Below are positions 2,587 to 58,070 of a DNA stretch of 64,000 nt, piece by piece (positions within the stretch are counted from its first letter, which is position 1; every line of letters begins with the position of its first letter). Both the position numbers and the translations under genes were made by a program. The notes under the pieces are model-generated. The model did no database searches and was not told the DNA's origin. It worked only from the letters and a program-made list of their open reading frames with translations. The stretch is from Bdellovibrionales bacterium (GTDB lineage Bacteria; Bdellovibrionota; Bdellovibrionia; Bdellovibrionales; JAUICD01), in NCBI GenBank assembly GCA_965203275.1, contig OZ241865.1:928001-992000 (forward strand). Reading direction: 5' to 3'.

Positions 2587-2763
2587 TTAATTTTTTCACT
2601 TAAGATGTTTTTAACTCCTAGCTGATTTTTCCCTTATAATAAACGACATTAATGGCACATTTTTAGACATTGCTCTGATCATGTAAGCTCTTGCTAACAA
2701 AAAAGTCTAGAAAATATACAAACATTTAGAAATCTTTAGATGAAAAAGACAACTTGTCATTCA

Positions 2764-3433
2764 GTGCAATTGGTGCAATCATCAAATTAACTGGTGCAAT
2801 TGGTGCAATCACCAAATCAACTGGTGCAATTGGTGCAATCACCAAACCAACTGGTGCAATTGGTGCAATCATCAAATCAACTGGTGCAATTGGTGCAATC
2901 ACCAAATCAACTGGTGCAATTGGTGCAATCACCAAACCAATTGGTGCAATCACCAAACCAACTGGTGCAATTGGTGCAATCACCAAATCAACTGGTGCAA
3001 TTGGTGCAATCACCAAACCAACTGGTGCAATTGGTGCAATCATCAAATCAACTGGTGCAATTGGTGCAATCACCAAATCAACTGGTGCAATTGGTGCAAT
3101 CACCAAATCAACTGGTGCAATTGGTGCAATCATCAAATCAACTGGTGCAATTGGTGCAATCATCAAATCAACTGGTGCAATTGGTGCAATCACCAAATCA
3201 ACTGGTGCAATTGGTGCAATCACCAAATCAACTGGTGCAATTGGTGCAATCATCAAATCAACTGGTGCAATTGGTGCAATCACCAAATCAACTGGTGCAA
3301 TTGGTGCAATCATCAAATCAACTGGTGCAATTGGTGCAATCACCAAATCAACTGGTGCAATTGGTGCAATCATCAAATCAACTGGTGCAATTGGTGCAAT
3401 CATCAAATCAACTGGTGCAATTGGTGCAATCAT
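2764..3433 (+). repeat. Tandem array of ~22-23 x 30-bp units, consensus ACTGGTGCAATTGGTGCAATCAYCAAAYCA
   Basis: Read directly; two variable positions, one 21-bp unit near 2941; ends just before the AGGAG RBS of the gene at 3449. Confidence 0.97.
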
Positions 3434-3448
3434 TTTAGGAGCTACATT

Positions 3449-4846
3449 ATGGCTAAAAATGTTTATCCTCAAGGTGAATCAAAAACTTTAGAGTTAAAAA
3501 AATGTATCCCCAAAAAAAATCAAATTATTAAAACTTGTGTGGCCTTTGCTAATGGAGCAGGTGGGGAAATTGTAATTGGTATTGAAGATAAAACAAGAAA
3601 GATCATTGGTGTATCCAATGAAGTAAGAGACAAAGTATTCGATAAAATAGCTAATTCTATTATTGACTCTATCACACCTTACCTAAATCCTGAAATTTTT
3701 GAACGGAACATCCATGGTAAAATAATTGTAATTATAAAAATTTATCCTGGAAATAGAACACCTTATTTTATTAAAAGTGAAAAACATCAAAGCCACGCAG
3801 GAGTCTACTTAAGGGTTGCCTCATCAACAAGACAGGCGAGTGAGCAATATATCAAAGACTTACATAGACAACAAGAAAATATATATTTTGATGAAGAGGC
3901 TTCAAAGCTAGCCTTTTCCAACTTAAATAAGAGTTTACTTAACGAAATATACCACAAAAAATCCAGTGAAGAAAAATACATAATGGGTAAAGTAGCAGTT
4001 AGAAACATTAAAAATCCTAGAAATATTATGGCAACCAATGCAGCTGTTTTATTTTTTTCAAACAATCCTGAAATACATATTCCAGAAGCTTTGGTGATCT
4101 GTTCACAGTTCAAAGGAGAAAAAGGTCGTAAAATTATCAGAACAACTGAACTTAAAGGCCCTATCCCATATCTTGTCGAATCAACTCTCAAGCTCTTAGA
4201 ATCATGGTTAGAGGTGCAATTAAAAATTTCTGATTCGGGAAGATTAAAAGGTCGTTTATTGATTCCAAAAACCGCTTTAAGAGAAGCCATCATCAATGCT
4301 TTGATTCATCGCACTTATTTTATTAACAGTGCTGTCAAAATATCTTTTTATGAAAATAGATTAGAAATTTTCAGTCCAGGAGGTTTTCCAGGGCTTATTT
4401 CTATTGAAAGCTTAGGCGATGGCACGACTTTTTTAAGAAATCCTACCATTGCAAGACTTGCCAGAGAGTATAAATTAATAGAAAAATTAGGGTCTGGCAT
4501 TCGAATGATTTTTAATTCTTGTAAAAGGCATAAGCTTAAAAAACCAGAATTTCAAGAAAATGGTAATTTTGTTAAGCTCATTTTTTATTTTAAAACCTTT
4601 AAAAAGAGCCATTTATTAAATAAAAACCTATCGCACGAAAATCAAATCATTCAACTTGGTAAAAAGCTTCAAAAGTTTAGAATTAAAGATATTCTTGAAA
4701 ATATAGACATATCTCGCAATACAGCTACTCGTAAAATAAATCATTTGATTAAAAAAAAACTATTTAAACGTTATGGTCAAGGGGCAGGGATCTATTTTAA
4801 ATATATTGGATCTGGTGGTAAAAAATCACTTCAAGATTTGTCTTGA
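3449..4846 (+). CDS. AlbA_2 (Schlafen-like) + RecG-C/HATPase_c_4 + wHTH protein
   Basis: 'ESKTLELK...CVAFANGAGGEIVIGIED', 'LREAIINALIHRTY', 'RLEIFSPG', 'RNPTIA', 'IEKLGSGI', C-terminal HTH 'ISRNTATRKINHL...GQG'; RBS AGGAG. Confidence 0.88.
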   Translation: MAKNVYPQGESKTLELKKCIPKKNQIIKTCVAFANGAGGEIVIGIEDKTRKIIGVSNEVRDKVFDKIANSIIDSITPYLNPEIFERNIHGKIIVIIKIYPGNRTPYFIKSEKHQSHAGVYLRVASSTRQASEQYIKDLHRQQENIYFDEEASKLAFSNLNKSLLNEIYHKKSSEEKYIMGKVAVRNIKNPRNIMATNAAVLFFSNNPEIHIPEALVICSQFKGEKGRKIIRTTELKGPIPYLVESTLKLLESWLEVQLKISDSGRLKGRLLIPKTALREAIINALIHRTYFINSAVKISFYENRLEIFSPGGFPGLISIESLGDGTTFLRNPTIARLAREYKLIEKLGSGIRMIFNSCKRHKLKKPEFQENGNFVKLIFYFKTFKKSHLLNKNLSHENQIIQLGKKLQKFRIKDILENIDISRNTATRKINHLIKKKLFKRYGQGAGIYFKYIGSGGKKSLQDLS

Positions 4847-12974: not shown

Positions 12975-12983
12975 TGCATTTTT

Positions 12984-13125
12984 TTCACTCAAAATGAGCC
13001 ACACCTCTGTTTCCCTAAAATTGAACTAGCCTCTGGCTACTTTTGGACAGTTAGCCCGACGGCTTGTCGCCGTCGATCAAAGGCTAACTGCCAGAAAACA
13101 TGCCAGAGGTTTATTTTGAGTGAAA
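12984..13125. repeat. Element A, nested/fold-back composite
   Basis: TTCACTCAAAATGAGCCACACCTCTG joined to TTTCCCTAAAATTGAACTAGCCTCTGGCTA...; ends ATTTTGAGTGAAA. Confidence 0.85.
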
Positions 13126-13152
13126 TGTTAAGAAAGAGGTTAAATATAAGGC

Positions 13153-13377
13153 TTATAATTTTTGAAGGTTTAGTATTTCTTGTTTAGAAAGCCCTGTAGC
13201 TTTACAAATAGCTTGGATATCTATATTAGCCTTTAAAAGCTTAGACAGAATCTCCATCTTCCCTTCTTGCAAGCCTTCTTGCCTACCTTCTTGCCTACCT
13301 TCTTGCCTACCTTTTTGTAAGCCTTTTTGCAAACCCCTAAACTCAGCCTCTTCTGAGAAACTTCTTATTCTGTGCAT
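13153..13377 (-). CDS. Rpn family C-terminal small ORF (RpnS-like)
   Basis: (EGRQ)n repeats plus helical 'LLKANIDIQAICKATGLSKQEI'; AAGGAG RBS upstream. Confidence 0.65.
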   Translation of the reverse strand: MHRIRSFSEEAEFRGLQKGLQKGRQEGRQEGRQEGLQEGKMEILSKLLKANIDIQAICKATGLSKQEILNLQKL

Positions 13378-13400
13378 AAAACGAACTCCTTCTGGTTCTG

Positions 13401-13552
13401 TTTCACTAAAAGTGGTCTAGCCTCTGGCTACTTTTGGGCAATGACCGCAAAGGCTTTCGCCTTTGACAAAATGGTCATTGCCTCAAAAGCCTGACCACTT
13501 TTAGTAGGGAGGATCTCCTTGTCTCTTAACACGATGTTAAGGAAAAAGATTT
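13401..13552. repeat. Element A, full copy inserted in the Rpn pseudogene
   Basis: ACTAAAAGTGGTC/GACCACTTTTAGT outer stem; TAGCC-TCT-GGCTA; GGCAATGACC/GGTCATTGCC; CAAAGGC-TTTC-GCCTTTG; TTAAC..GTTAA tail. Confidence 0.9.
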
Positions 13553-13637
13553 CCTTTTGATGCCGGACTGCCGGATCCCAGATGAATATCATGAGAAAAC
13601 AAGGTGTTTGCTTCATCCTTGCCTGTTTGCCGGATAT

Positions 13638-13958
13638 CTATAAACACCATATTAAGGAAACAAGACTTTCACTTGACTTCTGATCTTGACCTTTCTTTAA
13701 AGACCATATCTGTTGAAAGGTCCATAATGAAGGTCGAATCACATTATCTTTTACATCTTTAAGAATATCACAGTCCTTCAAATTATACAAGATATACTCA
13801 AAATTCGATACGTTTTTTCCAAAAATATCTGCAAATTCCTTTGGAAAGCAACTCGTAGCCCTTAAATGGTCATGGAAAGTCAAGGCTGGCTTCCGTCCTT
13901 CTCGCCATGATAAAATACAATCGGTATAATTGGACAACGATAAATATTATACAGATTT
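13638..13958 (-). pseudogene. Rpn family (Transposase_31) nuclease fragment, frameshifted and cut off by element A copies
   Basis: Alternate frame gives 'NLYNIYRCPIIPIVFYHGEK' (PxxPxVxYHG hallmark), then shifts into 'FGKNVSNFEYILYNL'; N-terminus absent. Confidence 0.7.
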
Positions 13959-13959
13959 G

Positions 13960-14105
13960 TTTCACTAAAAGTAAACTGACCTCTGGCTACTTTTGGACAT
14001 TGCTCTGACAGCTATCGCTGTCTAAAAAGAGCAATGTCTCAAAAGTCCGTTTACTTTTAGTAGGAAGGATCTCATCGTCTCTTAACCACATGTTAAGGAA
14101 AAAGT
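13960..14105. repeat. Element A, full copy
   Basis: ACTAAAAGTAAAC/GTTTACTTTTAGT; GACATTGCTCT/AGAGCAATGTC; GACAGC-TATC-GCTGTC. Confidence 0.9.
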
Positions 14106-14154
14106 TCTTTCTGATCCCGGGTTGCCGGATCCCGGAAAAGATCAAATTTGACTT

Positions 14155-14256
14155 TAAGTGTTTTTACACAACTTGTATAAAAAAGCTCCTAATTTATCAG
14201 CTTGTTTTGCTAATTCCATACAACCAACAAATTCTAGATCCAATATTGCTTGAACT
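14155..14256 (-). pseudogene. Possible C-terminal remnant of a four-helix-bundle protein
   Basis: Manual translation 'VQAILDLEFVGCMELAKQADKLGAFLYKLCKNT*', truncated at its 5' side by element A. Confidence 0.35.
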
Positions 14257-14257
14257 G

Positions 14258-14560
14258 TTTCACTAAAAGTAAACTAGCCTCTGGCTACTTTTGGGCATTG
14301 CTCTGACAGCTATCGCTGTCTAAAAAGAGCAATGCCTCAAAAGTCTGTTTACTTTTAGTAGGGAGGATCCTTTCGTTTTTTGACTACATGTTAAGGAAAA
14401 AGTTCCTTCCGATATCCATTTGCCGGATCCCGGATCCCAGATCCCGGATAAATACGATGTTAAGGAAACAAGCTATTTATTTCACCCCGGGACCTGACTG
14501 CCGGGTTGCCGGATCCCGGGATCCCAGATCCCGGATAAACACCATGTTAAGGGAAAAATG
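14258..14560. repeat. Element A full copy, extra tail modules and GGATCC(C) heptamers
   Basis: Same helices as the 13960 copy, then CCGGATCCCGGATCCCAGATCC tracts and repeated ATGTTAAGGAAA. Confidence 0.85.
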
Positions 14561-14651: not shown

Positions 14652-17558
14652 ATGTCTGAAAATTTCTTTATTACAAAAGTAAAGCCCTCAAAACCGCATA
14701 AACTGCATAAAACTAGGCAGAGGGGCAAAGCTCTTTTCTTTCCAAAGCTTTCCAAAGGATTAGTTTTATTTGCTCTGTTGTGTTTAATAGGGTGCAGTTC
14801 AAATGATCAATCAGCCAGTCCACCTCCTGGTCGCGATCGCATCAATCCTCCAGCAAATCCAAGCCCTACACCTAGGCCTAGCCCAAGTCCTAGTCCGACT
14901 CCAAGATCAAGCCCAAGACCAACTACAACTCCTGTTCCTGTAACAAAGACTCCTTCAGAGAAGTTAATCAAAGCAAGTGAAGATGGTGAAATAGCAGAAG
15001 TAAGGAGGCTCATAGAATCTGAAACTGACGTGAATGCAAGGGATCATAATAGGCGTACATCCTTGATATTGGCTAGCAAAAATGGTCATACGGCAGTCGT
15101 TAGGGCTTTGATAGCAGCCAACGCTGATGTCGATATTCAAGATAGGTTTGGAGATACAGCTTTGATGTATGCCAGTGCTAATAACCACATAGCAACAGTC
15201 AATGCCCTGATAACAGCCAATGCCAATGTCGATCATCAAGACAATAATGGCAAGACAGCTTTGATATCCGCCAGTGCAAAGGGTCATACGAGAATAGTCA
15301 ATGCTTTGATAACAGCTAGGGCAAACGTCAAAACTCAAGATATTAGAGGATATACAGCCTTGATGTATGCCAGACAAAATAGACATGAACAAGTCGAAGA
15401 AGTGTTGCAAAGAGCTGGTGCATCAGATTCAGCTATCATTGAAGCAAGTAAGAGTAATAACCTAGCAAGAGTCAAGGTCTTTATAGCCAATAGAGCTGAT
15501 GTCAATGTGAAAGATGGAGATGGCAAAACAGCCTTGATATGGGCCAGTGAAAAAGGTTACACAGCAATAGTAGTTGCTCTGATTGTAGCAAGGGCAGATG
15601 TCAACATCCAAGACACTAATGGTAAGACAGCTTTGATGCATGCTAGAGAAAAGGGACATACACAAATCGAGGAGGCATTGCGGATAGCTGGAGCTGTAGA
15701 TTTGGCTATCATCGAAGCAAGTGAAAATAGTAACTTAGCAAGGGTCAGAGAATTAATAGCAAATGGTGCTAATGTCAATATTCAAGACAATGCAGGTAAG
15801 ACAGCTTTAATATGGGCCAGTGATAATGGCCATGACACAATAGTGGCTATTTTGATAGCAGCAAGGGCAAATGCCGGCATCCGAGATCGTGTAGGCAAGA
15901 CAGCTTTGATATATGCAAGTACTAAAGGGCATGAGGAAATAGTAAGAAGGCTTATAGCAAGTGATTCTGGACCCAGTATTCAAAACAATGCGGGTCTTAA
16001 TATTCGAGACAATACTGGCCAGACAGCTTTGATATGGGCCAGTAAAAATGGCCATGAAATAATAGTCAATATATTAATAGCAGCAGGCAATACTGAGCTT
16101 GATATTAAAGACAATGCAGGCAAGACGGCTTTGATCTATGCAAGTACCAACGGCCATGTTGCAATAGTCAGAGAGCTTATAACAGCCGAGGCCGATGTTA
16201 GTATTCAAGACAATGAACGTCAAACAGCCTTAATATCAGCTACTAAGCAAAAATACACTGACACAGCAAGAATAACTAAGCAAGAATTAATAGTCAAGGC
16301 ACTTATAAACGCTGAAGCTGATCTCGATATTCAAGACAATAATGGCAAAACAGCTTTAATATATGCAAGTACTCATGGCGACACATACATTAAAATAGTA
16401 AATAGCCTGATAGAAGCCGATGCTAACGTCGATATCCAAGACGATACTGGTAAAACGGCTTTGAATCACGCCAGAGACAATAGCCATGAACAAGTCAAGG
16501 CGGCATTAGAAAGAGCTGGTGCATCGGATTTAGCTATCATCGAAGCAAGTAAGAGGGATGATGTAGCAACAGTCAACAGTTTAATAGCCGCCGGCAATGT
16601 TGATGTTAATGTTCAAGATTCTAATGGCAAGACAGCCTTGATCTGGGCCAGTGAAGAAGGTCACACAGCAATAGTGAATGCTCTGATCAGAGCCAATGCC
16701 AATGTCAACATTCGAGACAATGATGGCAAGACGGCTTTGATACATGCAAGTACGGAGGGCCATATTGCAGTCGTCAGAGAGCTGATCAGAGCCAGTGCTA
16801 ATGTCAATACTCGAGACAACGATGGCAACACAGCTTTAATATCGGCTACTAAGGAAAAACACACTGACAGTAGCAGTGACAAAAGGAAAACAAGGCATGA
16901 ATTGATTGTCGATGCACTTATAGCTGTTGATGGTGTTAATCTCGATATTCGAGACAAAGATGGTAAAACAGCTTTGATACATGCAAGTACTCACGGCGAC
17001 GATTACATTAAAATAGTCAATGCCCTGATAAGAGCCGATGCCAATATGAATATCCGAGACAATGATGGCAAGGCAGCTCTGCACTATGCAACTATCAATA
17101 ACCAAAACGATAGCCACGATAAGATAATCAAAGCCCTTTCAGGAGCTACTGGTGCCGACATCAACATTAAGAACAATGATGGAGTGACTCCTTTAATGCT
17201 TGCCAGTTGGAAAGGTTTATTAGATGTAGTCAAAAGACTGATAGCTCTCGATGCTGATATCGACGCTCAAGACGATGAGGGCAAGACGGCTTTGATGTGG
17301 TTTATCGATCAAACACCTTTACCTGGCATTACTATTACTCCACCTTCTGATCCACCTGATTTACCTGGTGATCAAGTGAAAATGGTAGATGCTCTGATAA
17401 AAGGCAAAGACAGCACAGTTAATACAGCAGATGATGCTGATGTATGTATCACAGATAATGATGACAATACAGCCCTACACTACGCAAATGAACATGGACA
17501 CGGACATATAGCCCTTAAACTTATTGAAAAAGGCAGTGAAAGATGTGCTAATCCCTAA
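14652..17558 (+). CDS. Large ankyrin-repeat lipoprotein with Pro/Ser/Thr-rich linker
   Basis: Lipobox-like 'LIGC', PxP linker, roughly 20 'G.TALI.AS..GH..IV..LI.A.A.VN' repeats; RBS AAGGAG. Confidence 0.92.
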   Translation: MSENFFITKVKPSKPHKLHKTRQRGKALFFPKLSKGLVLFALLCLIGCSSNDQSASPPPGRDRINPPANPSPTPRPSPSPSPTPRSSPRPTTTPVPVTKTPSEKLIKASEDGEIAEVRRLIESETDVNARDHNRRTSLILASKNGHTAVVRALIAANADVDIQDRFGDTALMYASANNHIATVNALITANANVDHQDNNGKTALISASAKGHTRIVNALITARANVKTQDIRGYTALMYARQNRHEQVEEVLQRAGASDSAIIEASKSNNLARVKVFIANRADVNVKDGDGKTALIWASEKGYTAIVVALIVARADVNIQDTNGKTALMHAREKGHTQIEEALRIAGAVDLAIIEASENSNLARVRELIANGANVNIQDNAGKTALIWASDNGHDTIVAILIAARANAGIRDRVGKTALIYASTKGHEEIVRRLIASDSGPSIQNNAGLNIRDNTGQTALIWASKNGHEIIVNILIAAGNTELDIKDNAGKTALIYASTNGHVAIVRELITAEADVSIQDNERQTALISATKQKYTDTARITKQELIVKALINAEADLDIQDNNGKTALIYASTHGDTYIKIVNSLIEADANVDIQDDTGKTALNHARDNSHEQVKAALERAGASDLAIIEASKRDDVATVNSLIAAGNVDVNVQDSNGKTALIWASEEGHTAIVNALIRANANVNIRDNDGKTALIHASTEGHIAVVRELIRASANVNTRDNDGNTALISATKEKHTDSSSDKRKTRHELIVDALIAVDGVNLDIRDKDGKTALIHASTHGDDYIKIVNALIRADANMNIRDNDGKAALHYATINNQNDSHDKIIKALSGATGADINIKNNDGVTPLMLASWKGLLDVVKRLIALDADIDAQDDEGKTALMWFIDQTPLPGITITPPSDPPDLPGDQVKMVDALIKGKDSTVNTADDADVCITDNDDNTALHYANEHGHGHIALKLIEKGSERCANP

Positions 17559-17599
17559 AAGCTGTAATGCAAGGATATGACCTTGGCCTACACCTTGCT

Positions 17600-18004
17600 G
17601 TTAAGAAACGAAAGGATCCTTCCTACTCAAAGTGAACAGGCTTTCTAGGCGATGACCATTTTATCGACGGCGACAACCAAAAGGCGTAAAATAGGACTTT
17701 TTCCTTAACATGTAGTAAAAAGATGAAGAGATCCTCCTTACTAAAAGTAAACGGACTTTTGAGGTAGCCAGCCTTTGATCGAGGGCGGTAGCCGTCGGGC
17801 TGGCTACCCAAAAGTGACTAGAGGTCAGTTTACTTTTAGTGAAAATCAAATGAGACAATGACCATTTTGTCAAAGGCGAAAGCCTTTGCGGTCATTGTCC
17901 AAAAGTGGCCAGAGGCCAGTTCACTTTGAGTGAAACAGAGGCTAGACCACTTTTAGTGAGCCAATGCCCAAAAGTGGCTAGAGGCCAGTTCAATTTTAGG
18001 GAAA
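17600..18004. repeat. Cluster of element A copies (full, partial and nested)
   Basis: Several CCAGAGG hairpins and ACTTTTAGTGAAA ends; junction GTGAAA|CAGAGG near 17935. Confidence 0.85.
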
Positions 18005-19078
18005 CGACTGGCGAATTTTTTTGATTTCTGCCTCTGATAAGCCAGTGATCTCACAGATATCTTGTAATTTTGCATTTCTCTTAATTAGTTTAAGTGCAAT
18101 TTCTTTTTGTTTCTTCTCAATACCCTTCTTAAAACCCTTCTCAATACCTTCTTCACGACCCTTCTCAATACCCTTCTTAATACCCTTCTCAATACCTTTT
18201 TCAATACCCTTCTCAATACCTTCTTCACGACCCTTCTCAATACCTTCCTCACGACCTTTTTCAATACCCTTCTTAAAACCCTTCTCAAGACCTTCCTCAC
18301 GACCCTCGTCACGAACAAATTCTTCTCTGTCTACTTGATCCCTCCTAGCTCTCTCTTTCACCATATCAAGCTCTTGTAATGTCTCATCTTTTGATAATAT
18401 CCATAAATGCTCAGCTGCTTCTGCCATGATTCCTCCTTTATCTTTGAAATACAAATATTCCTTTTGGTCCATCTGACCCGACCTCTTTAAAAAATAACAC
18501 CAATTCTCTTTTATGTCAATTAATTCTCCTAATTGGGACTGAAATTTATCTAATTCCACTATCACAAAACTCATACCCCGTGACATCACTACTTCTGGAT
18601 GCCCTATCCGACGAATATTGCAAACATGGTAATAGTCCTTTATTCCTTCAAATTCTTTTAAATTTACAGTTGTGAAAACCAATGAATACACGGGAAGTAA
18701 CTTATCAATATTCTCCCCTTTCCTAATCTGACCTGAATAGAGCCGAGATAAATACATCAGTAACCTATCCGTAAAATGCTTTTGAGCTGTCGTTTGAACT
18801 TCTACATTCGCAGTCTCTGTATTTTGAAGAATACCATTAATCCTTCTTCTTAACTGTACTCGCAAATCTAAAACAAAAAATTTATACTCCTCTGGGAATT
18901 TATCCGATGGAAGTTCTGTATTTAATATATGGATGTCTTCTATTACAGAACCCTCTGGCAATGGAAGAAAATTCTCCATTATTGAAATCAAAAGCTTTTT
19001 CTTCTTTGTAAAGAATGCCTTAAAATTACGATCCTGTGTTAAACTTAAATTCTTGCTTGGTTTTTTCATCTTGTACAC
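17996..19078 (-). CDS. Rpn family PD-(D/E)XK nuclease (PDDEXK_2) with 12-bp C-terminal repeats
   Basis: 'DRNFKAFF', 'LDLRV', 'NVEVQ', 'DRLLMYLSRLYSGQ', 'VELDKF', (EGIE/KGIE)n tract, helical tail; GTG start with GAGG. Confidence 0.9.
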   Translation of the reverse strand: MYKMKKPSKNLSLTQDRNFKAFFTKKKKLLISIMENFLPLPEGSVIEDIHILNTELPSDKFPEEYKFFVLDLRVQLRRRINGILQNTETANVEVQTTAQKHFTDRLLMYLSRLYSGQIRKGENIDKLLPVYSLVFTTVNLKEFEGIKDYYHVCNIRRIGHPEVVMSRGMSFVIVELDKFQSQLGELIDIKENWCYFLKRSGQMDQKEYLYFKDKGGIMAEAAEHLWILSKDETLQELDMVKERARRDQVDREEFVRDEGREEGLEKGFKKGIEKGREEGIEKGREEGIEKGIEKGIEKGIKKGIEKGREEGIEKGFKKGIEKKQKEIALKLIKRNAKLQDICEITGLSEAEIKKIRQSFP

Positions 19079-19219: not shown

Positions 19220-19404
19220 CTGGGATCCGGGATCGAGCAACCCGGCATCAGAAAGAACTCTTTTTCCTTAACATCATGTTAAAAGAGGAAAGGATACTTT
19301 CTACTAAAAGTGGTCAGGCTTTCTAGGTTGCCAGCATTTGAGAAGGCGATAGCCTTCGGCTGGCAACCAGAAAGTAGCCAGAGGCTAGACCACTTTTAGT
19401 GAAC
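19220..19404. repeat. Element A full copy, preceded by GGATCC heptamers
   Basis: ACTAAAAGTGGTC; CTTTCT-A-GGTTGCCAGC/GCTGGCAACC-AGAAAG; GAAGGC-GATA-GCCTTC; TAGCC-AGA-GGCTA. Confidence 0.9.
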
Positions 19405-19495
19405 CAACAGCGAATATTTTATATAGAAATATTGTAAAGCTTTAGGTGGGCTTAGAGGCTTAGAGGTTGAAATCAACTGGTTTTGATTTAAGGAA

Positions 19496-20155: not shown

Positions 20156-20159
20156 ATTT

Positions 20160-20475
20160 TTTTCACTAAAAGTAAACTAGCCTCTGTTTCCCTAAAATTG
20201 AACTAGCCTCTGGCTATTTTTGGGCAGTTAGCCTTTGATGACGGCGGTAGCCGTCGGGCTAACTGCCAGAAAACATGCCAGAGGCATGATGCATTTTGAG
20301 TGAATTAGAGGCATATCTTGTTTCCCTAACATGGTGTCAGAAGCAAGGAGATCCGCTCTACTCAAAATGAGCAGATTTTTGAGGCATTGCTCTTTTTAGA
20401 CAGCGATAGCTGTCAGAGCAATGCCCAAAAACACACCAGAGGTGTGGCTCATTTTGAGTGAAATGTTAAGGAAAA
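20160..20475. repeat. Element A cluster (nested, fold-back and full copy)
   Basis: CCTCTG|TTTCCC junction near 20186; full copy ACTCAAAATGAGC...CACACC-AGA-GGTGTG-GCTCATTTTGAGTGAAA. Confidence 0.85.
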
Positions 20476-21600: not shown

Positions 21601-21748
21601 TTCACTAAAAGTGGTCTGACCTCTGGTCACTTTCTGGCGATGACCACGATGGCTTTCGCCATCGGTAAAATGGTCATCGCCTAGAAAGCCTGACCACTTT
21701 TAGTAGGGAGGATCTCCTTGCTTTTTAACTACATGTTAAGGAAAATGT
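21601..21748. repeat. Element A full copy
   Basis: TGACC-TCT-GGTCA; CTTTCTGGCGATGACCA/TGGTCATCGCCTAGAAAG; CGATGGC-TTTC-GCCATCG. Confidence 0.9.
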
Positions 21749-21892
21749 CTTTATTATAATAATTTACAATGTATTTTTTATTATTTTATAGTCGATTGAT
21801 TACTATGTCAAGCTTTTTAAAAGCAAGCAGAATTTAAAAAAATAGAAACTACATAAATCAACTCAATGAACTCATCTATCAAGCTCAAAAGT

Positions 21893-22773: not shown

Positions 22774-23487
22774 ATGAGAAATCTATATTTATCTTTATTT
22801 TTATCCATGGTTGCATGTCAAATTTCAGAAGCTACTCAAAATGTAGGCAAATCAAATACAGTAGCCACTCAAAATCCAGTAGAAAATGGTGCGAACATTA
22901 ACCTTCAAAACTCTGATGTCTGGACGGCTTTAATGTTGGCCAGTTTTGATGGTGATCTAGAGCTTGTAAAGGAATTGCTAGCGGCCGGAGCGGACGTCAA
23001 TCATCAAAACAAAAGTGGCAAGACGGCTTTAATGCTGGCTATTTCTAAAGGCCATACAGAGATTGTAAGATTATTGCTAGAAAATGGTGCTTACGTCGAT
23101 CTTCAAGACGAAGATGGCAATACGGCTTTAGGTTATGCTAGTAATGAAGACCATATAGAAGCTTTAAGGACATTGCTAGAAAATGGAGCTAACGTCGATC
23201 ATCAAAACAAAGGTGGCTGGACGGCTTCAATGATTGCTAGTCATGAAGGACATATAGAGAGTTTAAAGTTATTGATAGAATATGGTGCGGACGTCAATAG
23301 TCAAGCATTTATGGGCTATACGGCTTTAATGATTGCTAGTCATAATGGTGATCTAGAGCTTGTAAGGTTATTGCTGGCAAACGGAGCTAACGTCTATCTT
23401 CAAAACTTTTTTGGATTTAGTGTCTTAGACTATGAGAGAGTACTTTCAGAAGATGTGAATAAACTCTTAAGAGAGTCGGTAAAATAA
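22774..23487 (+). CDS. Ankyrin-repeat protein, probable lipoprotein
   Basis: Signal ending 'MVAC'; five to six ankyrin repeats; AAGGAG RBS. Confidence 0.9.
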   Translation: MRNLYLSLFLSMVACQISEATQNVGKSNTVATQNPVENGANINLQNSDVWTALMLASFDGDLELVKELLAAGADVNHQNKSGKTALMLAISKGHTEIVRLLLENGAYVDLQDEDGNTALGYASNEDHIEALRTLLENGANVDHQNKGGWTASMIASHEGHIESLKLLIEYGADVNSQAFMGYTALMIASHNGDLELVRLLLANGANVYLQNFFGFSVLDYERVLSEDVNKLLRESVK

Positions 23488-36079: not shown

Positions 36080-37223
36080 ATGGATCATTTAAAAAATTTG
36101 AGTCATTTATCTACGCAATTTCAAGATATTCAGAAGAGAGTTGAAAATCTTCGGAGGTGTCTTTGACTTACAACAAAAACAAAAACGTATTTCAGAAATA
36201 ACTCAAATGTTAGAAAATCCTAAAACTTGGCAGAATCCTTCTGCAATGCAAGACCTCAATAGAGAAAAATCTTTACTTGAAAAACCTATTCAAGAGTGGC
36301 AACAGCTCCAACCTCTTATAGAAAATACAGAAACTCTTTTAGAGATGATTCGTGAAGTTTCTATAGATACATCTCAAGCTAATCAAAAAGAGATCAATGA
36401 ACTATTTAAGGATTTGCATTTAGAGCTTCAAGCTTTGGAATCTTTGTTACAAAAATTAGATTTAAAAACTATATTAGGAGAGGACATAGATCGAAAGAAT
36501 AGTTATTTAGTCATCCATGCAGGAGCTGGTGGCACAGACGCTTGTGATTGGGTAAGTATATTGTTGCGTATGTATATAAAATGGGCTGATGCACAAGGTT
36601 ATAAAATAACTTATCAAGAAATGACCATGGGCGAAGAAGCTGGTATTAAATCAGTGACAGTGTTTATTCAAGGAGATTATGCGTATGGTTATCTTAAATG
36701 TGAAAAAGGGGTTCATCGGCTTGTGCGTATTTCTCCTTTTGATTCAAATGCTAGGCGACACACATCTTTTGCAGCTGTAGACGTTTACCCTGAAATAGAT
36801 GAAACGATCCATGTAGAGATCAAGCAAGAGGATTTACGAGTAGACACATACAAAGCTAGTGGTGCTGGAGGACAGCATGTGAATAAAACAGATTCTGCTG
36901 TACGCATCACTCATTGTCCAACAGGTGTAGTGGTTCAATGTCAAAGTGAACGTTCACAGCATTCTAATAGGGATCGAGCTATGAAAATGCTTAAGTCTGT
37001 TTTATATGATAAAGAACGTGCTAAAAGAAAAGCAGTAAAGGCACTAGAAAATGCAGAGAAAATGGCTAATGAGTGGGGGAGCCAAATTCGTTCTTATGTC
37101 ATGCATCCTTATCAAATGGTCAAAGATCATCGAACAAATTTTGAAGTAGGTGATGTCAATAGTGTACTTGATGGAAATATCACAGATTTTATCAATGCTT
37201 TTTTAAGAAGGTTGGCTCACTAA
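36080..37223 (+). CDS. prfB: Peptide chain release factor 2 with programmed +1 frameshift
   Basis: ATG 36080, 28 codons to CTT-TGA-C (36161-36167) with internal SD (GGAGG); SPF and GGQ motifs in the +1 frame. Confidence 0.97.
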
Positions 37224-37815
37224 AAGTAAACTGACCTCTGGTCACTTTTGGGTTGCCAGCCGAAGGCTATTCGCCTTCTTAAATGCTGGCAACCTCAAAA
37301 GTCCGTTTACTTTTAGTAGGGAGTTAGTTGTTTCACTCAAAATGAGCCACACCTCTGGTGTGTTTTTGGGCATTGCTCTGACAGCTTACGCTGTCTAAAA
37401 AGAGCAATGCCGCAAAAAACTGCTCATTTTGAGTAGGGAGGATCTCCTCATTTTTTAACATAATGTTAGGGAAACAAGATGTTTATTTCATTTTGATATT
37501 TTGCCTTTGACAAAATAGGCAACACCTAAAAAATCCATTCATTTCAAGTAAGAAAGGATATCCTTGCCACTTAACACCATGTTAAGGAAACAAGATGTTT
37601 AGCCCGACGGCTCTCGCCGTCGATCAAAGGCTAACTGCCTAGAAAATCCATTTATTTTGAGTAGAGGAGGATCCTCTCGTCTCTTTACACGATGTTAGGG
37701 AAACAAGAGTTCTTTCTGATGCCTGTTTGCCGGATCCCAGATCCCGGATCCCAGATCCCAGATCCCGGAAAGAGAATCCTCTCATATTTTTATACCATGT
37801 TAAGGAAACAAGATT
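37217..37815. repeat. Element A cluster (two full copies, partial copies, GATCCC heptamers)
   Basis: First copy begins at the prfB CAC-TAA; second begins TTTCACTCAAAATGAGC at 37331; heptamers at ~37730-37770. Confidence 0.9.
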
Positions 37816-37880
37816 TCCTTTTTTTTGTTTTTTTATTTTTTTAGATTCTGCATAACTCTCAAACAAAAAATAATTAGGTG

Positions 37881-37983: not shown

Positions 37984-38040
37984 AAGTAAAAACAAAATAG
38001 AAAAGCAGAATCGAAGGGTGGCGGGTGGGGTTAGGGGTTT

Positions 38041-38085
38041 GTTTCACTAAAAGTGAACTGACCTCTGTTTCCCTCAAAGTGAAAG
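38041..38085. repeat. Element A nested stubs
   Basis: TTTCACTAAAAGTGAACTGACCTCTG|TTTCCCTCAAAGTGAA. Confidence 0.75.
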
Positions 38086-41199: not shown

Positions 41200-41220
41200 T
41201 CATTTATCCTTAACCATTCT

Positions 41221-42315
41221 TTTCACTCAAAATGCATCATGCCTCTGTTTCCCTAAAATTGAACTAGCCTCTGGCTACTTTTGGGCAGTTAGCCCGACGA
41301 CTGTCGTCGTCGATCAAAGGCTAACTGCCTCAAAAGCTTGTTCAATTTTAGGAAGAAGGATGTCCTCATTTCTTAACACCATGTTAAGGAAAAAGATTTC
41401 CTTCTGATGTTTGTCTGACAGCTATCGCTGTCTAAAAAGAGCAATGCCTCAAAAATCCGCTCATTTTGAGTAGGGCGGATCTCCTTGCTTCTGACACCAT
41501 GTTAGGGAAACAAGATATGCTTCTATTTCACTCAAAATGCATCATGCCTCTGGCTACTTTTGGGCAGTTAGCCCGACGACTGTCGTCGTCGATCAAAGGC
41601 TAACTGCCTCAAAAGCTTGTTCAATTTTAGGAAGAAGGATGTCCTCATTTCTTAACACCATGTTAAGGAAAAAGATTTCCTTCTGATGTTTGTCTGACAG
41701 CTATCGCTGTCTAAAAAGAGCAATGCCTCAAAAATCCGCTCATTTTGAGTAGGGCGGATCTCCTTGCTTCTGACACCATGTTAGGGAAACAAGATATGCT
41801 TCTATTTCACTCAAAATGCATCATGCCTCTGGCTACTTTTGGGCAGTTAGCCCGACGACTGTCGTCGTCGATCAAAGGCTAACTGCCTCAAAAGCTTGTT
41901 CAATTTTAGGAAGAAGGATGTCCTCATTTCTTAACACCATGTTAAGGAAAAAGATTTCCTTCTGATGTTTGTCTGACAGCTATCGCTGTCTAAAAAGAGC
42001 AATGTCGTTCGTTCACTAAAAGTGGTCTAGCCTCTGGCTACTTTCTGGCAATGACCGCGTTTGTCTCACTAAAAATAAACCAGCCTCTGGCTGTTTTTGG
42101 ACAATCAGCCCGACGGCTCTCGCCGTCGATAAAAGGCTGATTGCCTCAAAAATCCGTTTATTTTTAGTAGGAAGAATCCTCTTGTCTCTTTACACGATGT
42201 TAAGGAAACAAGATGTTTACTTCACGTTGGCAAAATGGTCATTGCCTCAAAAATCCGCTCATTTTGAGTAGGGGAGGATATCCTCGTCTCTTGACCGCAT
42301 GTTAAGGAAAATGTG
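41221..42315. repeat. Element A cluster including ~2.7 tandem copies of a 279-bp composite unit
   Basis: Identical blocks recur with period 279 (e.g. TTCACTCAAAATGCATCATGCC near 41528 and 41807); further copies at 42011-42315. Confidence 0.92.
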
Positions 42316-42348
42316 TCCATGTTGGCTTGCAGTATTGGAATGTTTAAC

Positions 42349-43899: not shown

Positions 43900-44520
43900 C
43901 TATAAGTTTGTGTCACGGACAACATCATTGCCATTAACTATAGTATCGGCAAGGAGTACAGCATTGCCAAAAACTTGAGCATAGCCATAGACCTGAGCAT
44001 TATAAGTAACTATAGCATTGCCCCAGACTCTAGCACTGCCAAAAACCTGAGCATTGACAAAGATGATAGCACTGCCAAAGACCATAGCATAGCCATAGAC
44101 CTGAGCCTTGCCAAAGACCTCAGCATCGCCAAAGACTTCAGCATTGTTATAAACCCTAGCACGGCCAAAGACCCCAGCATCGCCAAAGACTTCAGCATGG
44201 CCATAGACCCTAGCATAGTCAGAGACTATAGCATTGCCAGAAACCCTAGCATAACCATAGACCTTAGCATAACGAGAGACCTTAGCATTGTCAGAAACCT
44301 CAGCATGGCCAAAGACTTCAGCATAATCGCAAACAGTAACATTTGGCCCTACATAAGCTGTATCCGCTACATAAGCTGTATTTGCTACAAACCCACCACC
44401 ATTAGCATGGTAACGGCCTTCAATGCCTTCGCCACAAGGTGTGTCTGCTAAAGCAAATACACTTAACGACATACTCAATAAACATGTTGTGATCATCATA
44501 TTTGCATTTATAAAATTCAT
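43900..44520 (-). CDS. Secreted hexapeptide-repeat (left-handed beta-helix) protein
   Basis: AGGAGA RBS before ATG 44520; signal peptide; 'HANGGGFVA.TA.V' then about 20 'GxAxVY/F' repeats. Confidence 0.8.
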   Translation of the reverse strand: MNFINANMMITTCLLSMSLSVFALADTPCGEGIEGRYHANGGGFVANTAYVADTAYVGPNVTVCDYAEVFGHAEVSDNAKVSRYAKVYGYARVSGNAIVSDYARVYGHAEVFGDAGVFGRARVYNNAEVFGDAEVFGKAQVYGYAMVFGSAIIFVNAQVFGSARVWGNAIVTYNAQVYGYAQVFGNAVLLADTIVNGNDVVRDTNL

Positions 44521-44619: not shown

Positions 44620-44742
44620 TCCATGATCTGGGATCTGAGATCTGGGATCCGGCATCCCAGCAACAAGAAGAAAAGAGCTTTTTCCTTAACATTTCACTCA
44701 AAATAAATCATGCCAGAGGCATGATGCATTTTGAGTGAAATT
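44620..44742. repeat. GATCT/GATCC heptamers plus element A fold-back stub directly downstream of 23S
   Basis: TTTCACTCAAAAT...CATGCCAGAGGCATG...ATTTTGAGTGAAA. Confidence 0.75.
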
Positions 44743-48210: not shown

Positions 48211-48759
48211 CTCTTCCCTAAAAGCAGACTAACTAATTTAAAGAAGGATGACTCTCTTGCCCTTTTACAAAAGGAAACAAGTAGCCTTTCCCTTAACCTG
48301 TAACAGCTTTTTTCTTTAACAAAATAAGCAACACCTCATTTTGTTACCTCAAAAATTTATGCATTTTGAGTAATGAGGATATTCTTATCTTTTAAACCCT
48401 GTTACAGAAAATGACTTCCTATATCTGCCTTTTATTATAACATCATTTTCTATCAGTTGTGCCTAATAACTCAATAGCTATTTTTTATAATAATACTTCT
48501 TAAATTTTGTCTTTCCCTCAAAATGACCTAACCTCTTGCTATTAGAAAATATGCCAGAGATATGGTGCATTTTAAAGAAAATAAACTTCGCTCTTTCAAA
48601 CCTAAATAGCTAGCTATAATTTTGCCTGTGCAAAAAGGAGACACCTTAATATGAAAGAATTTCAAAATAAGGTGTATTGACCACAAGTCCTTTGTTTCAG
48701 CAAATAAACAATAGGAGGTAATACTTAAACTAAAACAAAGGCTTTTTAAAAGCTCCTTA

Positions 48760-51699: not shown

Positions 51700-52150
51700 T
51701 TTTTCCTTAACATGGTATTTATCCGGGATCCGGGATCCGGCAATCAGGCAGACAGGCAAGGATAAGGCGAACTGCTTGTTTCCTTAACATTGTGTAAAAA
51801 AACGAAGAGATCCTTTCTACTAAAAGTGGTCAGGCTTTTGAGGTGATGACCATTTTATCGACGGCGTGAGCCGTCGTGGTCATCACCCAAAAGTGACCAG
51901 AGGTCAGTTTACTTTTAGTGCAAATCAAATGAGGCAATGACCATTTTGTCAAAGGCGAAAAAAGTGAAATAAATAGCTTTTTCCTTAACATCGTGTTAAA
52001 AGAGGAAATGATCCTCCTTACTAAAAGTAAACGGATTTTTGAGGCAATCAGCCTTTGATCGACGGCGTGAGCCGTCGGGCTGATTGCCCAAAAACAGCCA
52101 GAGGCTGGTTTACTTTTAGTGAAACAGAGGTCAGACCACTTTTAGTGAAA
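51700..52150. repeat. Element A cluster (two full copies, partial and nested stub, GGATCC heptamers)
   Basis: CGACGGC-GTGA-GCCGTCG hairpins; CAGCC-AGA-GGCTG; GTGAAA|CAGAGG junction near 52124. Confidence 0.9.
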
Positions 52151-56266: not shown

Positions 56267-56393
56267 TCCTGAGTTTGGTAGCCTGGCCTGCAAAAGTCTG
56301 CAAAAATAAAGTTGTGAGATTTCAATAGGTTATAAGCACAATAAGATTTTGTGCCACTAGAGGAATATCCCTTCATTTTTTATGTTTATTCCT
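56267..56393 (+). repeat. Element B copy (long form)
   Basis: Core plus GAGGAATATCCCTTCATTTTTTATGTTTATTCC shared with the 57.9 kb copy. Confidence 0.85.
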
Positions 56394-56554
56394 GGGATCC
56401 GGGATCTGATGCCGGGTTGCCAGATCCCGGATCCCGGATCCCAGATCCCCGATCCCGGATCCCAGACCCCAGATCCCAGATCCCAGATCCCGGATCCCGG
56501 ATCCCAGAGGATCCCAGATCCCGGATCCCAGATCCCGGATCCCAGATTCCCAGA
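56394..56554. repeat. Heptamer tandem tract (GGATCCC/AGATCCC) x ~20
   Basis: Read directly. Confidence 0.92.
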
Positions 56555-56582
56555 TAGACTCCAGTTCGTTGTTTTATTTTTT

Positions 56583-57886: not shown

Positions 57887-58070
57887 ATCCTGAGCTTGAT
57901 AGCCAGCAAAAATAAAGTTGTGAGATTTCAGCAGGTTATGAGCGTAATAAGATTTTGTGCCACTAGAGGAATATCCCTTCATTTTTTATGTTTATTCCCG
58001 GGTTCCGGGATCTGATGCCGGGTTGCCGGATCCCAGATCCCAGATAAACATCGTGTTAAGGAAAAATTTC
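57887..58070 (+). repeat. Element B copy followed by GGATCC heptamers and an element A tail module
   Basis: Near-identical to 56267-56430; ends CATCGTGTTAAGGAAAAA. Confidence 0.85.

Follow-up and report, generated by a model that had tools for sequence, protein, structure and literature searches.

Several described families of short DNA sequences resemble the repeat analysed here in size, fold or genomic habit. REP sequences and REPINs are high-copy, intergenic, clustered and non-autonomous, they produce no target duplication, and their hairpin structure matters more than their sequence; presumably they function in the form of a folded single strand. The palindrome-associated elements (PATEs) derived from the IS200/IS605 group, whose mechanism is known as "peel and paste", carry imperfect hairpins near their ends, fold as single strands and also insert without duplication. 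MITEs, among them the Correia, ERIC/IRU, RUP and Rickettsia palindromic elements (reviews PMC10969869, PMC3184786), are palindromic, non-coding, intergenic units of 100-200 nt that have expanded in host-associated genomes and occasionally lie inside genes. The attC sites, 60-140 nt in length, conserve structure over sequence, contain bulged bases and function on one strand. Retroelements, such as the group II intron, the retron and the template of a diversity-generating retroelement (DGR), need a reverse transcriptase (RT).

Element A, the repeat described here, resides in the small genome of a host-associated bacterium, available as a single contig of 2,567,810 bases with 35% G+C. Its unit is a non-coding sequence of about 160 bases with a branched hairpin fold; it carries no gene, in keeping with the non-autonomous character assigned to it in a preliminary description of one part of this genome. 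That part, the 64-kb stretch of DNA analysed in full, is referred to below as the window. Element A is probably a selfish DNA repeat that moves but has no gene of its own, akin to MITEs and REPINs, albeit of unusually elaborate build. A literature search, with ISfinder outside its range, returned nothing specific on such a family, whether for Bdellovibrionota or among the MITEs already described.

Copy number and distribution

A single-sequence nhmmer search of the genome with Element A gave 1162 hits, from which a profile was made. This profile returned 1579 hits, spanning 165,868 bases or 6.46% of the genome. As the element is near-palindromic, the weaker shadow hits on opposite strands were removed, leaving 1339 non-redundant copies (648 on the plus and 691 on the minus strand). 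The core is complete in 796 of these copies, and 748 extend over the full length. The copies form 629 clusters, distributed over the whole genome and over both strands. The preliminary description had estimated 25-30 copies in the window; the profile search yields 28 non-redundant ones, 14 of them full length, at the places then listed. Short head fragments at 12978, 38039 and 44694 escape the profile and were read directly from the sequence. The features of the window are collected in Table 1.

Table 1. Parts of the reference copy of Element A, further copies and associated arrays in the window
Feature	Position	Strand	Remarks
Orphan 26-nt head, then tail-less copy	12978..13125	+	Chimera; far arm of the tail-less copy belongs to an inverted copy, central hairpin common to both
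Reference full copy	13398..13561	+	Profile positions 1-164
5' leader (YTG + TTT), before invariant CAC	13398..13404	+	
P1 5' arm	13405..13417	+	Helix 1; pairs with 13493-13505
P4 hairpin, 5 bp, loop TCT	13418..13430	+	Favoured self-insertion site
P2 stem, two segments	13431..13489	+	Encloses P3 hairpin
P3 terminal hairpin loop	13455-13458	+	
A-rich internal loop in P2 stem	13466-13471	+	
Bulged T in P2	13483	+	
P1 3' arm	13493..13505	+	P1 = 13 bp
Tail: GGATC motif, TTAAC-N5-GTTAA hairpin (T2), weaker AAGGAAA/TTTCCTT hairpin (T3)	13506..13561	+	
Full copy	13958..14109	+	Profile search
Putative PF05635 (IVP) gene remnant	14110..14254	-	Read by eye; interrupted by copy at 14255
Full copy	14255..14410	+	Profile search
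Heptamer array after the preceding copy	14419-14462		
Four copies/fragments	17594..18005	-	Profile 55-139, 4-156, 1-88, 3-46; last fragment overlaps stop of PDDEXK_2 gene 17996-19078
Full copy	19248..19406	-	Profile search
Orphan head (+), tail-less copy and full copy (-)	20158..20463		
Full copy	21601..21753	+	Lies shortly before the start of a paralogous gene, where a paralogue carries 21 different bases (cluster 271)
Five copies/fragments	37213..37821	+	Heptamer array at 37729-37783
Two stacked orphan heads	38039..38085	+	
Orphan head and eight copies/fragments	41215..42319	+	279-nt tandem unit (full copy + 5'-truncated copy), x3
Two inverted heads fused via one P4 hairpin	44694..44742		Joined to a reversed tail
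Partial copy	48343..48420	+	Profile 80-158; in 16S-tRNA-23S spacer
Two full copies	51771..52127	-	
Heptamer (GATCCCR)n arrays	56384..56560		Type found after Element A tails and beside IVP genes; second set at 57990-58065

Architecture of the element and conservation of its fold

The fold is Y-shaped, with P1 enclosing the P4 hairpin and the P2/P3 stem, and the outer stem, P2, P3, P4 and the tail with its GGATC motif and TTAAC-N5-GTTAA hairpin can all be read at 13398-13561 as originally proposed. Conservation of the head ends about 7 nt upstream of the CAC across 782 heads, and the tail, about 50-55 nt in length, serves as a junction point for other modules. Folded as RNA, the plus strand of 13398-13561 reaches -70 kcal/mol (z -7.7 versus 200 shuffles) and the minus strand -74.1 kcal/mol (z -9.3 versus 200 shuffles), while the plus strand folded as DNA gives a z of -8.7; none of the 200 shuffles matches the native fold energies.

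Covariation was assessed in an alignment of 72 copies, 63 of them distinct and 9 taken from a related genome. RNAalifold recovered the architecture of the preliminary description with 38 pairs, 29 of which show compensatory changes, and helix 1 (P1) has such changes at 9 of its 13 pairs. Paired cells amount to 96.4% in this alignment versus 80.8 +/- 0.5% in shuffles, none of 500 of which scored as high, and a control in which the partners were shifted by 1-3 columns lowered pairing to 31-47% and the number of compensatory pairs to 6-10. The same holds for the 617 distinct copies of the genome, in which 96.0% of the cells pair. When each partner was ranked against all 67 other variable columns of this larger set, the pairing partner proved to be the column of highest mutual information in 16 of 25 variable pairs and stood within the top four in 24 of the 25. 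The mutual information of the partner column usually exceeds that of physically adjacent columns, and many pairs occur as three Watson-Crick types, each in large numbers. Pairing, compensatory pairs and mutual information agree that structure rather than sequence is conserved, as had been suggested, and the Y-shaped fold is strongly supported by covariation. The covariance model made here has 113 positions and 38 pairs.

Mutation by template switching within quasi-palindromes is well established, and the paired stems may be viewed as its by-product: it would transfer a change from one arm to the other, gene conversion between copies would exchange both arms together, and mainly recombination and tandem amplification would spread the copies with neither selection on the fold nor a dedicated enzyme. 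Correction of a palindrome, however, should erase a bulge, an internal loop and a side branch. The bulged T, described earlier as the usual single bulged base of P2, is kept in 723 of 756 copies, and 741 of the 756 retain TCT as the loop of P4. Together with the A-rich internal loop, these features are retained in 95-98% of the 756 copies, and the side branch and the unpaired A-run are retained likewise. The conserved asymmetries of the bulged T and the TCT loop thus argue for selection on the fold rather than mere upkeep of a palindrome.

The imperfections of pairing are also unequal between strands. The genome contains 467 distinct 103-nt cores, including families of up to 20 copies with identical cores and differing flanks, and these recently amplified families have 0.81 non-Watson-Crick pairs per copy versus 2.54 in singletons. 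In families of at least three identical cores, mismatches that would be a G.T wobble on the bottom strand outnumber the converse by 19 to 1, and in singletons by 295 to 171, in both cases at few positions and in related copies. An asymmetry of 19 to 1 has no basis in a strand-neutral process such as template switching. It points to selection acting on the fold of the bottom strand, i.e. the complement of the head-to-tail strand, which is the strand singled out in the preliminary description and probably the one that folds.

RNA product or DNA element

The preliminary description took the loops of P3 as a sign of an RNA made from that same strand. Each copy, or a subset of copies, would then be a bottom-strand gene for a structured RNA, for example a ribozyme, an RNA resembling a guide or a small RNA with a regulatory function. 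Such a gene would account for the covariation of the four helices, for the tolerance of wobbles on the bottom strand and for the z of -9.3 of that strand as folded RNA. The P3 loops are indeed GNNA on the bottom strand in 729 of 756 copies; the GNRA bias proper, which had been reported, is confined to 452 of the 756. As 37% of the loops are GNNA but not GNRA, the argument from GNRA is weak. Sheared G.A closure fits DNA hairpins as well as RNA.

The copies are placed almost exclusively between genes. Outside a crude gene set lie 98.5% of the Element A bases, and the intergenic regions used comprise 89 of 320 convergent, 88 of 320 divergent and 196 of 1136 tandem ones. Compared with the genes of the tandem regions, 311 copies point the same way and 398 the opposite way, and no bias of orientation relative to genes was found among the copies of the genome. 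Nor was there a bias between replichores, the copies being divided 369/369 and 279/322 in halves set by a GC skew too weak for firm placement of the origin, which limits the replichore test. A scan of 1.6 kb comprising four copies found 4 sigma-70-like promoter sites versus 3.3 expected, none of them recurrent, and its two terminator-like sites consist of a P4 hairpin and, next to it on the minus strand, the T-run that belongs to P1. Across the 64-kb window no Rfam family reached its gathering score, and between 12950 and 14500, a region with four copies, nothing matched Element A at E up to 1. RNA-mediated copying would call for an RT, and a six-frame scan of the genome gave 0 candidates for PF00078.

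With neither an orientation bias nor a recurrent promoter, an RNA gene is not supported, and the earlier proposal of an RNA made from the named strand is not upheld. About 1300 copies that are nested, truncated and disruptive of genes are moreover typical of selfish DNA, and we regard a bottom-strand RNA gene as improbable. The fold is therefore read as that of single-stranded DNA.

Insertion sites, nesting and recombination

Empty sites were sought as left and right flanks that adjoin elsewhere in the same genome (paralogous sites); the sister species (G001) was unfit for comparison of junctions, its genes being 67-75% identical and its synteny broken. In this manner, 21 single-copy filled sites with an empty paralogous counterpart were obtained, and target-site duplication was found in none of these pairs. 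In cluster 458 a complete element with its YTG leader lies between two bases, with no duplication and no loss. Two insertions are located within PF05635 genes (clusters 603 and 365/602), one with the coding sequence continuing beyond the element and the other with the loss of about 31 target bases; the junction at 14254/14255 of the window falls at the same position of the gene as the insertion at genome position 2498115 (cluster 603). Several frames of Rpn-like PDDEXK_2 proteins also terminate inside copies of Element A. At the other junctions, 2-6 bases are common to the element and the target, or 5-20 bases are replaced. The 3' junctions are ragged, and many of the "empty" sites contain replaced bases rather than a clean gap. 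In no fewer than two clean cases (clusters 458 and 497) the YTG leader arrives as part of the element, so that it probably does not represent a motif of the target.

The element itself also offers sites for insertion. Among the 782 heads, 110 are preceded by TCTG from the P4 loop of a different copy, 65 come after a tail hairpin, 62 lie within the loop of a reversed tail hairpin and 28 come after a full tail. Insertion at these preferred sites within the element leads to stacks of 26-nt orphan heads upstream and to 5'-truncated remainders downstream. The tail was also considered as an independent target element, and this was rejected: 655 of 860 tail hairpins follow a core arm, only 22 follow heptamers, and of the 183 classed as "solo/other" most of those among the examples listed follow the core of another allele.

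A search of public sequencing runs listed 15 runs in 6 studies, none of them from RNA. The contigs of four public short-read runs break or collapse at every copy, and the joints within them mostly reflect other copies of the genome. Nesting in hairpin loops, insertion without duplication and the tie to PF05635 and heptamers, which is treated below, had no place in the preliminary description.

Recombination has left its own traces. The tail is a separable module, identical 103-nt cores being joined to different tails, and there are chimeric copies with mismatched P1 arms or a hybrid P4; recombination and conversion are therefore frequent as well. In view of the ragged 3' junctions and the replaced bases, recombination instead of transposition may account for some of the spread. 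Many filled/empty pairs, such as those of clusters 497 and 500, resemble recombination between tail motifs, and the length of tandem arrays differs between close relatives (see below). All of this would be expected if the paired stems were a by-product of template switching and conversion. Clean insertions in unique sequence and in genes (clusters 458 and 603), however, exceed what homologous recombination can bring about, and in view of these and of the retained bulge, loop and wobble asymmetry we consider the by-product explanation unlikely. A mobile DNA repeat, additionally reshuffled by recombination, is the preferred reading.

Search for a mobilizing enzyme

It had been noted that the window contains no cognate transposase or RT, and the genome as a whole has no Y1-HUH, IS110 or RT gene. 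A six-frame scan of its 2.57 Mb gave 0 matches to Y1-HUH/RAYT (PF01797), a search whose control was positive in 6 of 14 genomes, and 0 hits to IS110 (PF01548). As possible neighbours of the copies, Y1-HUH/RAYT, IS110 and RT genes are thus absent from the genome, and the TnpB-type is represented by a single PF07282 (zinc ribbon) hit inside a 1365-aa frame. Two frames match PF00589. The scan for Y2 (IS91-type) enzymes gave no match and is uninformative, its control having been negative in all 14 genomes.

A census of multi-copy genes found 9 IS256-like, 9 IS4-like, 8 resolvase, 14 PDDEXK_2/Rpn-like and 14 PF05635 genes, in addition to methylase genes and eight unnamed protein families, the latter with no informative Pfam or NCBIfam match. 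The IS256-like, IS4-like and resolvase genes have no constant distance or geometry to copies of Element A. Rpn-like nucleases are described (PMC5350276, PMC10400941) as recombination-promoting and as toxin-antitoxin defence genes; in the present genome they are often victims of insertion. Among the multi-copy genes tested, the PF05635 cassette is the only one with a fixed geometry to Element A. It is the first candidate for a partner, and the Rpn-like PD-(D/E)XK nucleases are the second.

The PF05635 cassette and its heptamer arrays

The 14 PF05635 (23S_rRNA_IVP, Avd-like) genes lie between heptamer arrays, and nine of them are intact, with a product of 122 aa, an Avd-like four-helix-bundle protein that matches TIGR02436 and, weakly, PDB 2GSC. 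On both sides of the gene are (YGGGATC)n heptamers and a GGCAACCCGGCA motif. For eight of the nine intact genes, a copy of Element A on the opposite strand lies 54-92 nt beyond the stop codon and turns its tail to the gene, a geometry shown at baseline by 57 of 1777 genes. The copies concerned have different stem alleles, and gene and copy are therefore not one duplicated block. Of 1059 Element A tails, 128 are followed by the same heptamer arrays in complementary orientation, and of 304 arrays, 173 have the end of a tail no more than 60 nt away. In the sister species (G001), a PF05635 gene has the tail of a copy on one side and the head of the following copy on the other, and a cassette of about 475 nt, missing at the same site in a close relative, ends in the tail motif and 12 nt of the Element A head. 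The core of Element A has no counterpart in the PF05635 cassette.

PMC10053308 relates PF05635 to Avd of the diversity-generating retroelements and makes no mention of the present repeat. Genes of this family are also abundant in genomes that lack Element A, with 19 on the large contigs of one assembly (G004), 18 in G021 and 11 in G025, and the protein is therefore not sufficient. We know of no catalytic activity of the PF05635 fold. It may nevertheless be asked whether a single mobile system exists in a gene-less form, Element A, and in a gene-bearing one, the PF05635 heptamer cassettes. Such a system would recognize folded single strands and insert into hairpin loops by a mechanism that belongs to none of the known families of transposases and recombinases, and by which intervening sequences would also be placed in the helix loops of rRNA. 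We hold this to be a long shot.

Host range and comparison of close relatives

BLAST detected Element A in 3 of 41 related genomes, and the covariance model, applied to a sample of 121 genomes of the order, did so in 3, namely the host (G000), its sister species G001, and G004. In G004 the copies are limited to three contigs (C1, C4 and C11). C11 (52 kb) is 91-94% identical to and colinear with G001 and only 66-70% identical to G003, the congener of G004, and C4 (15 kb) is 88-91% identical to G001. G004 was accordingly rejected as a third host, the contigs being mis-binned DNA of a G001-like organism. Among the genomes searched, which include the related ones, the Element A family is confined to one genus. 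An argument from the co-occurrence of Element A with PF05635 and PDDEXK_2 in five genomes of the family was dropped because the copies of G004 are mis-binned.

The mis-binned contigs supplied a close pair for comparison, G001 and a relative of 91% identity. Two tandem arrays have unequal numbers of copies, 3 against 4 in one and 2 against 1 in the other, and a 205-nt variant resembling Element A, with the same head and a different interior, is present in one of the two and missing in the other, where the empty site holds seven other bases.

The distribution also bears on a possible service of the repeat to its host, for which the copies would be kept as sites of a nucleoid or defence protein, as recombination hot spots by which adjacent surface-protein genes are diversified or as transcription insulators. 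Copies that are almost exclusively intergenic and often adjoin multi-copy families and defence-type genes (Rpn-like, PF05635) would suit such a role, and the conserved bases of loops and junction could contact a protein. Yet the copies disrupt genes, pile into each other instead of spacing out, show no rule of orientation or position relative to genes and are restricted to one genus. We give a host-kept function very little credence, and return to the selfish mobile repeat.

Proposed mechanism and significance

As a selfish repeat, Element A would proliferate as DNA, and the intermediate, we infer, would be single-stranded. A trans-acting protein would recognize the branched fold of the strand complementary to the head-to-tail strand, and well-folded copies alone would multiply, so that the four helices would stay paired in spite of the drift of their sequences. 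Insertion takes place without target-site duplication, often with a microhomology of a few bases or a small deletion of the target. Hairpin loops and sites next to them are favoured, in particular the P4 loop TCT and the small hairpin in the tail of an older copy, and nests as well as stacks of orphan heads are the result. The roughly 1300 copies then undergo unequal recombination and gene conversion, by which cores and tails are reshuffled and tandem arrays change in length. PF05635 or the Rpn-like proteins may have a part in this process.

If this mechanism is true, the approximately 1300 natural variants, in which evolution has probed four helices, and their nested junctions constitute a data set for structure-directed insertion by an enzyme outside the known families. 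The tie to PF05635 offers a concrete protein for testing, from a very large family with no assigned function outside diversity-generating retroelements. The covariance model is also of use in annotation, as it separates copies from genes and has already exposed mis-binned contigs in a related assembly.

Comparison with known systems

The preliminary description could match Element A to neither REP, ERIC, attC, domains V/VI of the group II intron nor a hammerhead core, and the comparison made here leads to the same outcome for the REPIN-RAYT, IS200/IS605, DDE-MITE, attC and retroelement systems. Retroelements are set apart by their need for an RT, the genome of Element A having 0 matches to PF00078. 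Element A has the abundance, the clustering between genes, the lack of autonomy and of target duplication, and the primacy of hairpin structure that distinguish REPs and REPINs. REPs, however, are simple hairpins of 20-40 nt and REPINs are doublets of these, whereas Element A is a three-way junction of about 110 nt with a tail; REPs and REPINs are accompanied by RAYT, a Y1 HUH protein whose gene REPs usually flank, whereas the present genome has no RAYT or Y1 gene. To our knowledge, insertion into their own loops is not a described habit of REPINs.

The likeness to IS200/IS605 PATEs lies in the imperfect hairpins near the ends, the absence of duplication, the single-strand fold and, possibly, the preference for a short upstream motif (YTG). 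These elements are mobilized with TnpA, often accompanied by TnpB; TnpA is what the genome of Element A lacks, its only TnpB-type match being that of the 1365-aa frame. Transposons of this type, which use the single-stranded DNA of the lagging strand, would show a replichore bias, whereas Element A shows none, under a weak skew. They insert 3' of a fixed tetra- or pentanucleotide; Element A brings its YTG along in clusters 458 and 497 and shares 2-6 nt with the target at other junctions.

MITEs resemble Element A in size, palindromic and non-coding character, intergenic location, expansion in a host-associated genome and occasional position inside genes. They are bounded by terminal inverted repeats that match a DDE transposase, and they make a short target duplication. 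Element A makes none; its ends are asymmetric, a head versus a tail, and its stems covary, unlike the conserved protein-binding repeats of MITEs. With attC sites it has in common the conservation of structure over sequence, the bulged bases and, probably, a single functional strand. The attC sites form one array of uniform orientation beside intI, with one crossover point, whereas the copies of Element A are scattered over both strands and have junctions at several positions.

The PF05635 cassettes are gene-bearing, whereas Element A is gene-less and has a different, branched core, and the heptamer arrays around the PF05635 gene are here direct and not inverted. The two nevertheless share the same heptamer arrays, the tail motif and the sites in hairpin loops, and each varies between presence and absence among close relatives.

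Element A and other repeat families

The 205-nt repeat (see the table) has a head and P1 arms as in the structured repeat Element A, while its single interior hairpin and its tail differ. At least 15 copies occur in the sister species G001, at 77-91% identity. It is a sister family, which has only the head in common with Element A. The GAGCAAGC-type palindromic hairpins of the second family serve as places of Element A insertion, either into or beside the hairpin. Conserved modules, noted genome-wide in G000 alongside this palindromic family, often lie 3' of Element A tails. The partial Element A copy of the rRNA operon has the 16S gene on one side and the spacer tRNA on the other.

The apparent third host, G004, carries its loci (L003, L005 and L067-L070) on contigs C1, C4 and C11. 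Contig C11 is 91-94% and C4 88-91% identical to G001, whereas C11 shares only 66-70% identity with G004's own congener; the three contigs belong to a G001-like organism and were probably binned with G004 by contamination, which raises the apparent repeat content of this assembly.

Locations of the features discussed
Feature	Location	Strand	Remark
Element A, partial copy	window 48343-48420	+	spacer of the only rRNA operon
PDDEXK_2 (Rpn-like) gene	window 17996-19078	-	one of 14 in the genome
Small reading frame	window 13132-13376	-	product read by eye
205-nt repeat	L067 8776-8980 = G004:C11 28775-28979
Second palindromic family, GAGCAAGC-type hairpin	genome-wide, e.g. G000 454707-454865, 1914561-1914721
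Long tandem arrays, 30-nt (21+9 variants) and 18-nt units	window 2647-3537, 43918-44376	both	overlapping open frames
Genes of 99-nt (33-codon) repeats	window 14652-17558, 22774-23487

Associated and repeat-rich genes

In the leader of every gene of the Avd-like PF05635 family (L009 1330-1420 and aligned loci), the Shine-Dalgarno region AGGAGGAAATTT can pair with a complementary run, AAATTTCCTCC, upstream, and this predicted pairing suggests translational control of the gene. The frames of the long tandem arrays probably encode repeat-rich surface or secreted proteins. A period of 33 codons is that of ankyrin repeats, and the 99-nt-repeat genes, putatively ankyrin-like, fit a host-associated lifestyle.

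Inside the Rpn-like nuclease gene, 12-nt tandem repeats (18065-18352) give rise to a variable tetrapeptide run of the protein, and the stop of this gene is contained in an Element A head. The product of the small frame shows, by eye, QEGR-like tetrapeptide repeats and a C-terminal segment resembling the tail of Rpn-like PDDEXK_2 proteins. Intragenic antitoxins have been described for rpn genes, and the small frame may be a comparable stand-alone short form.
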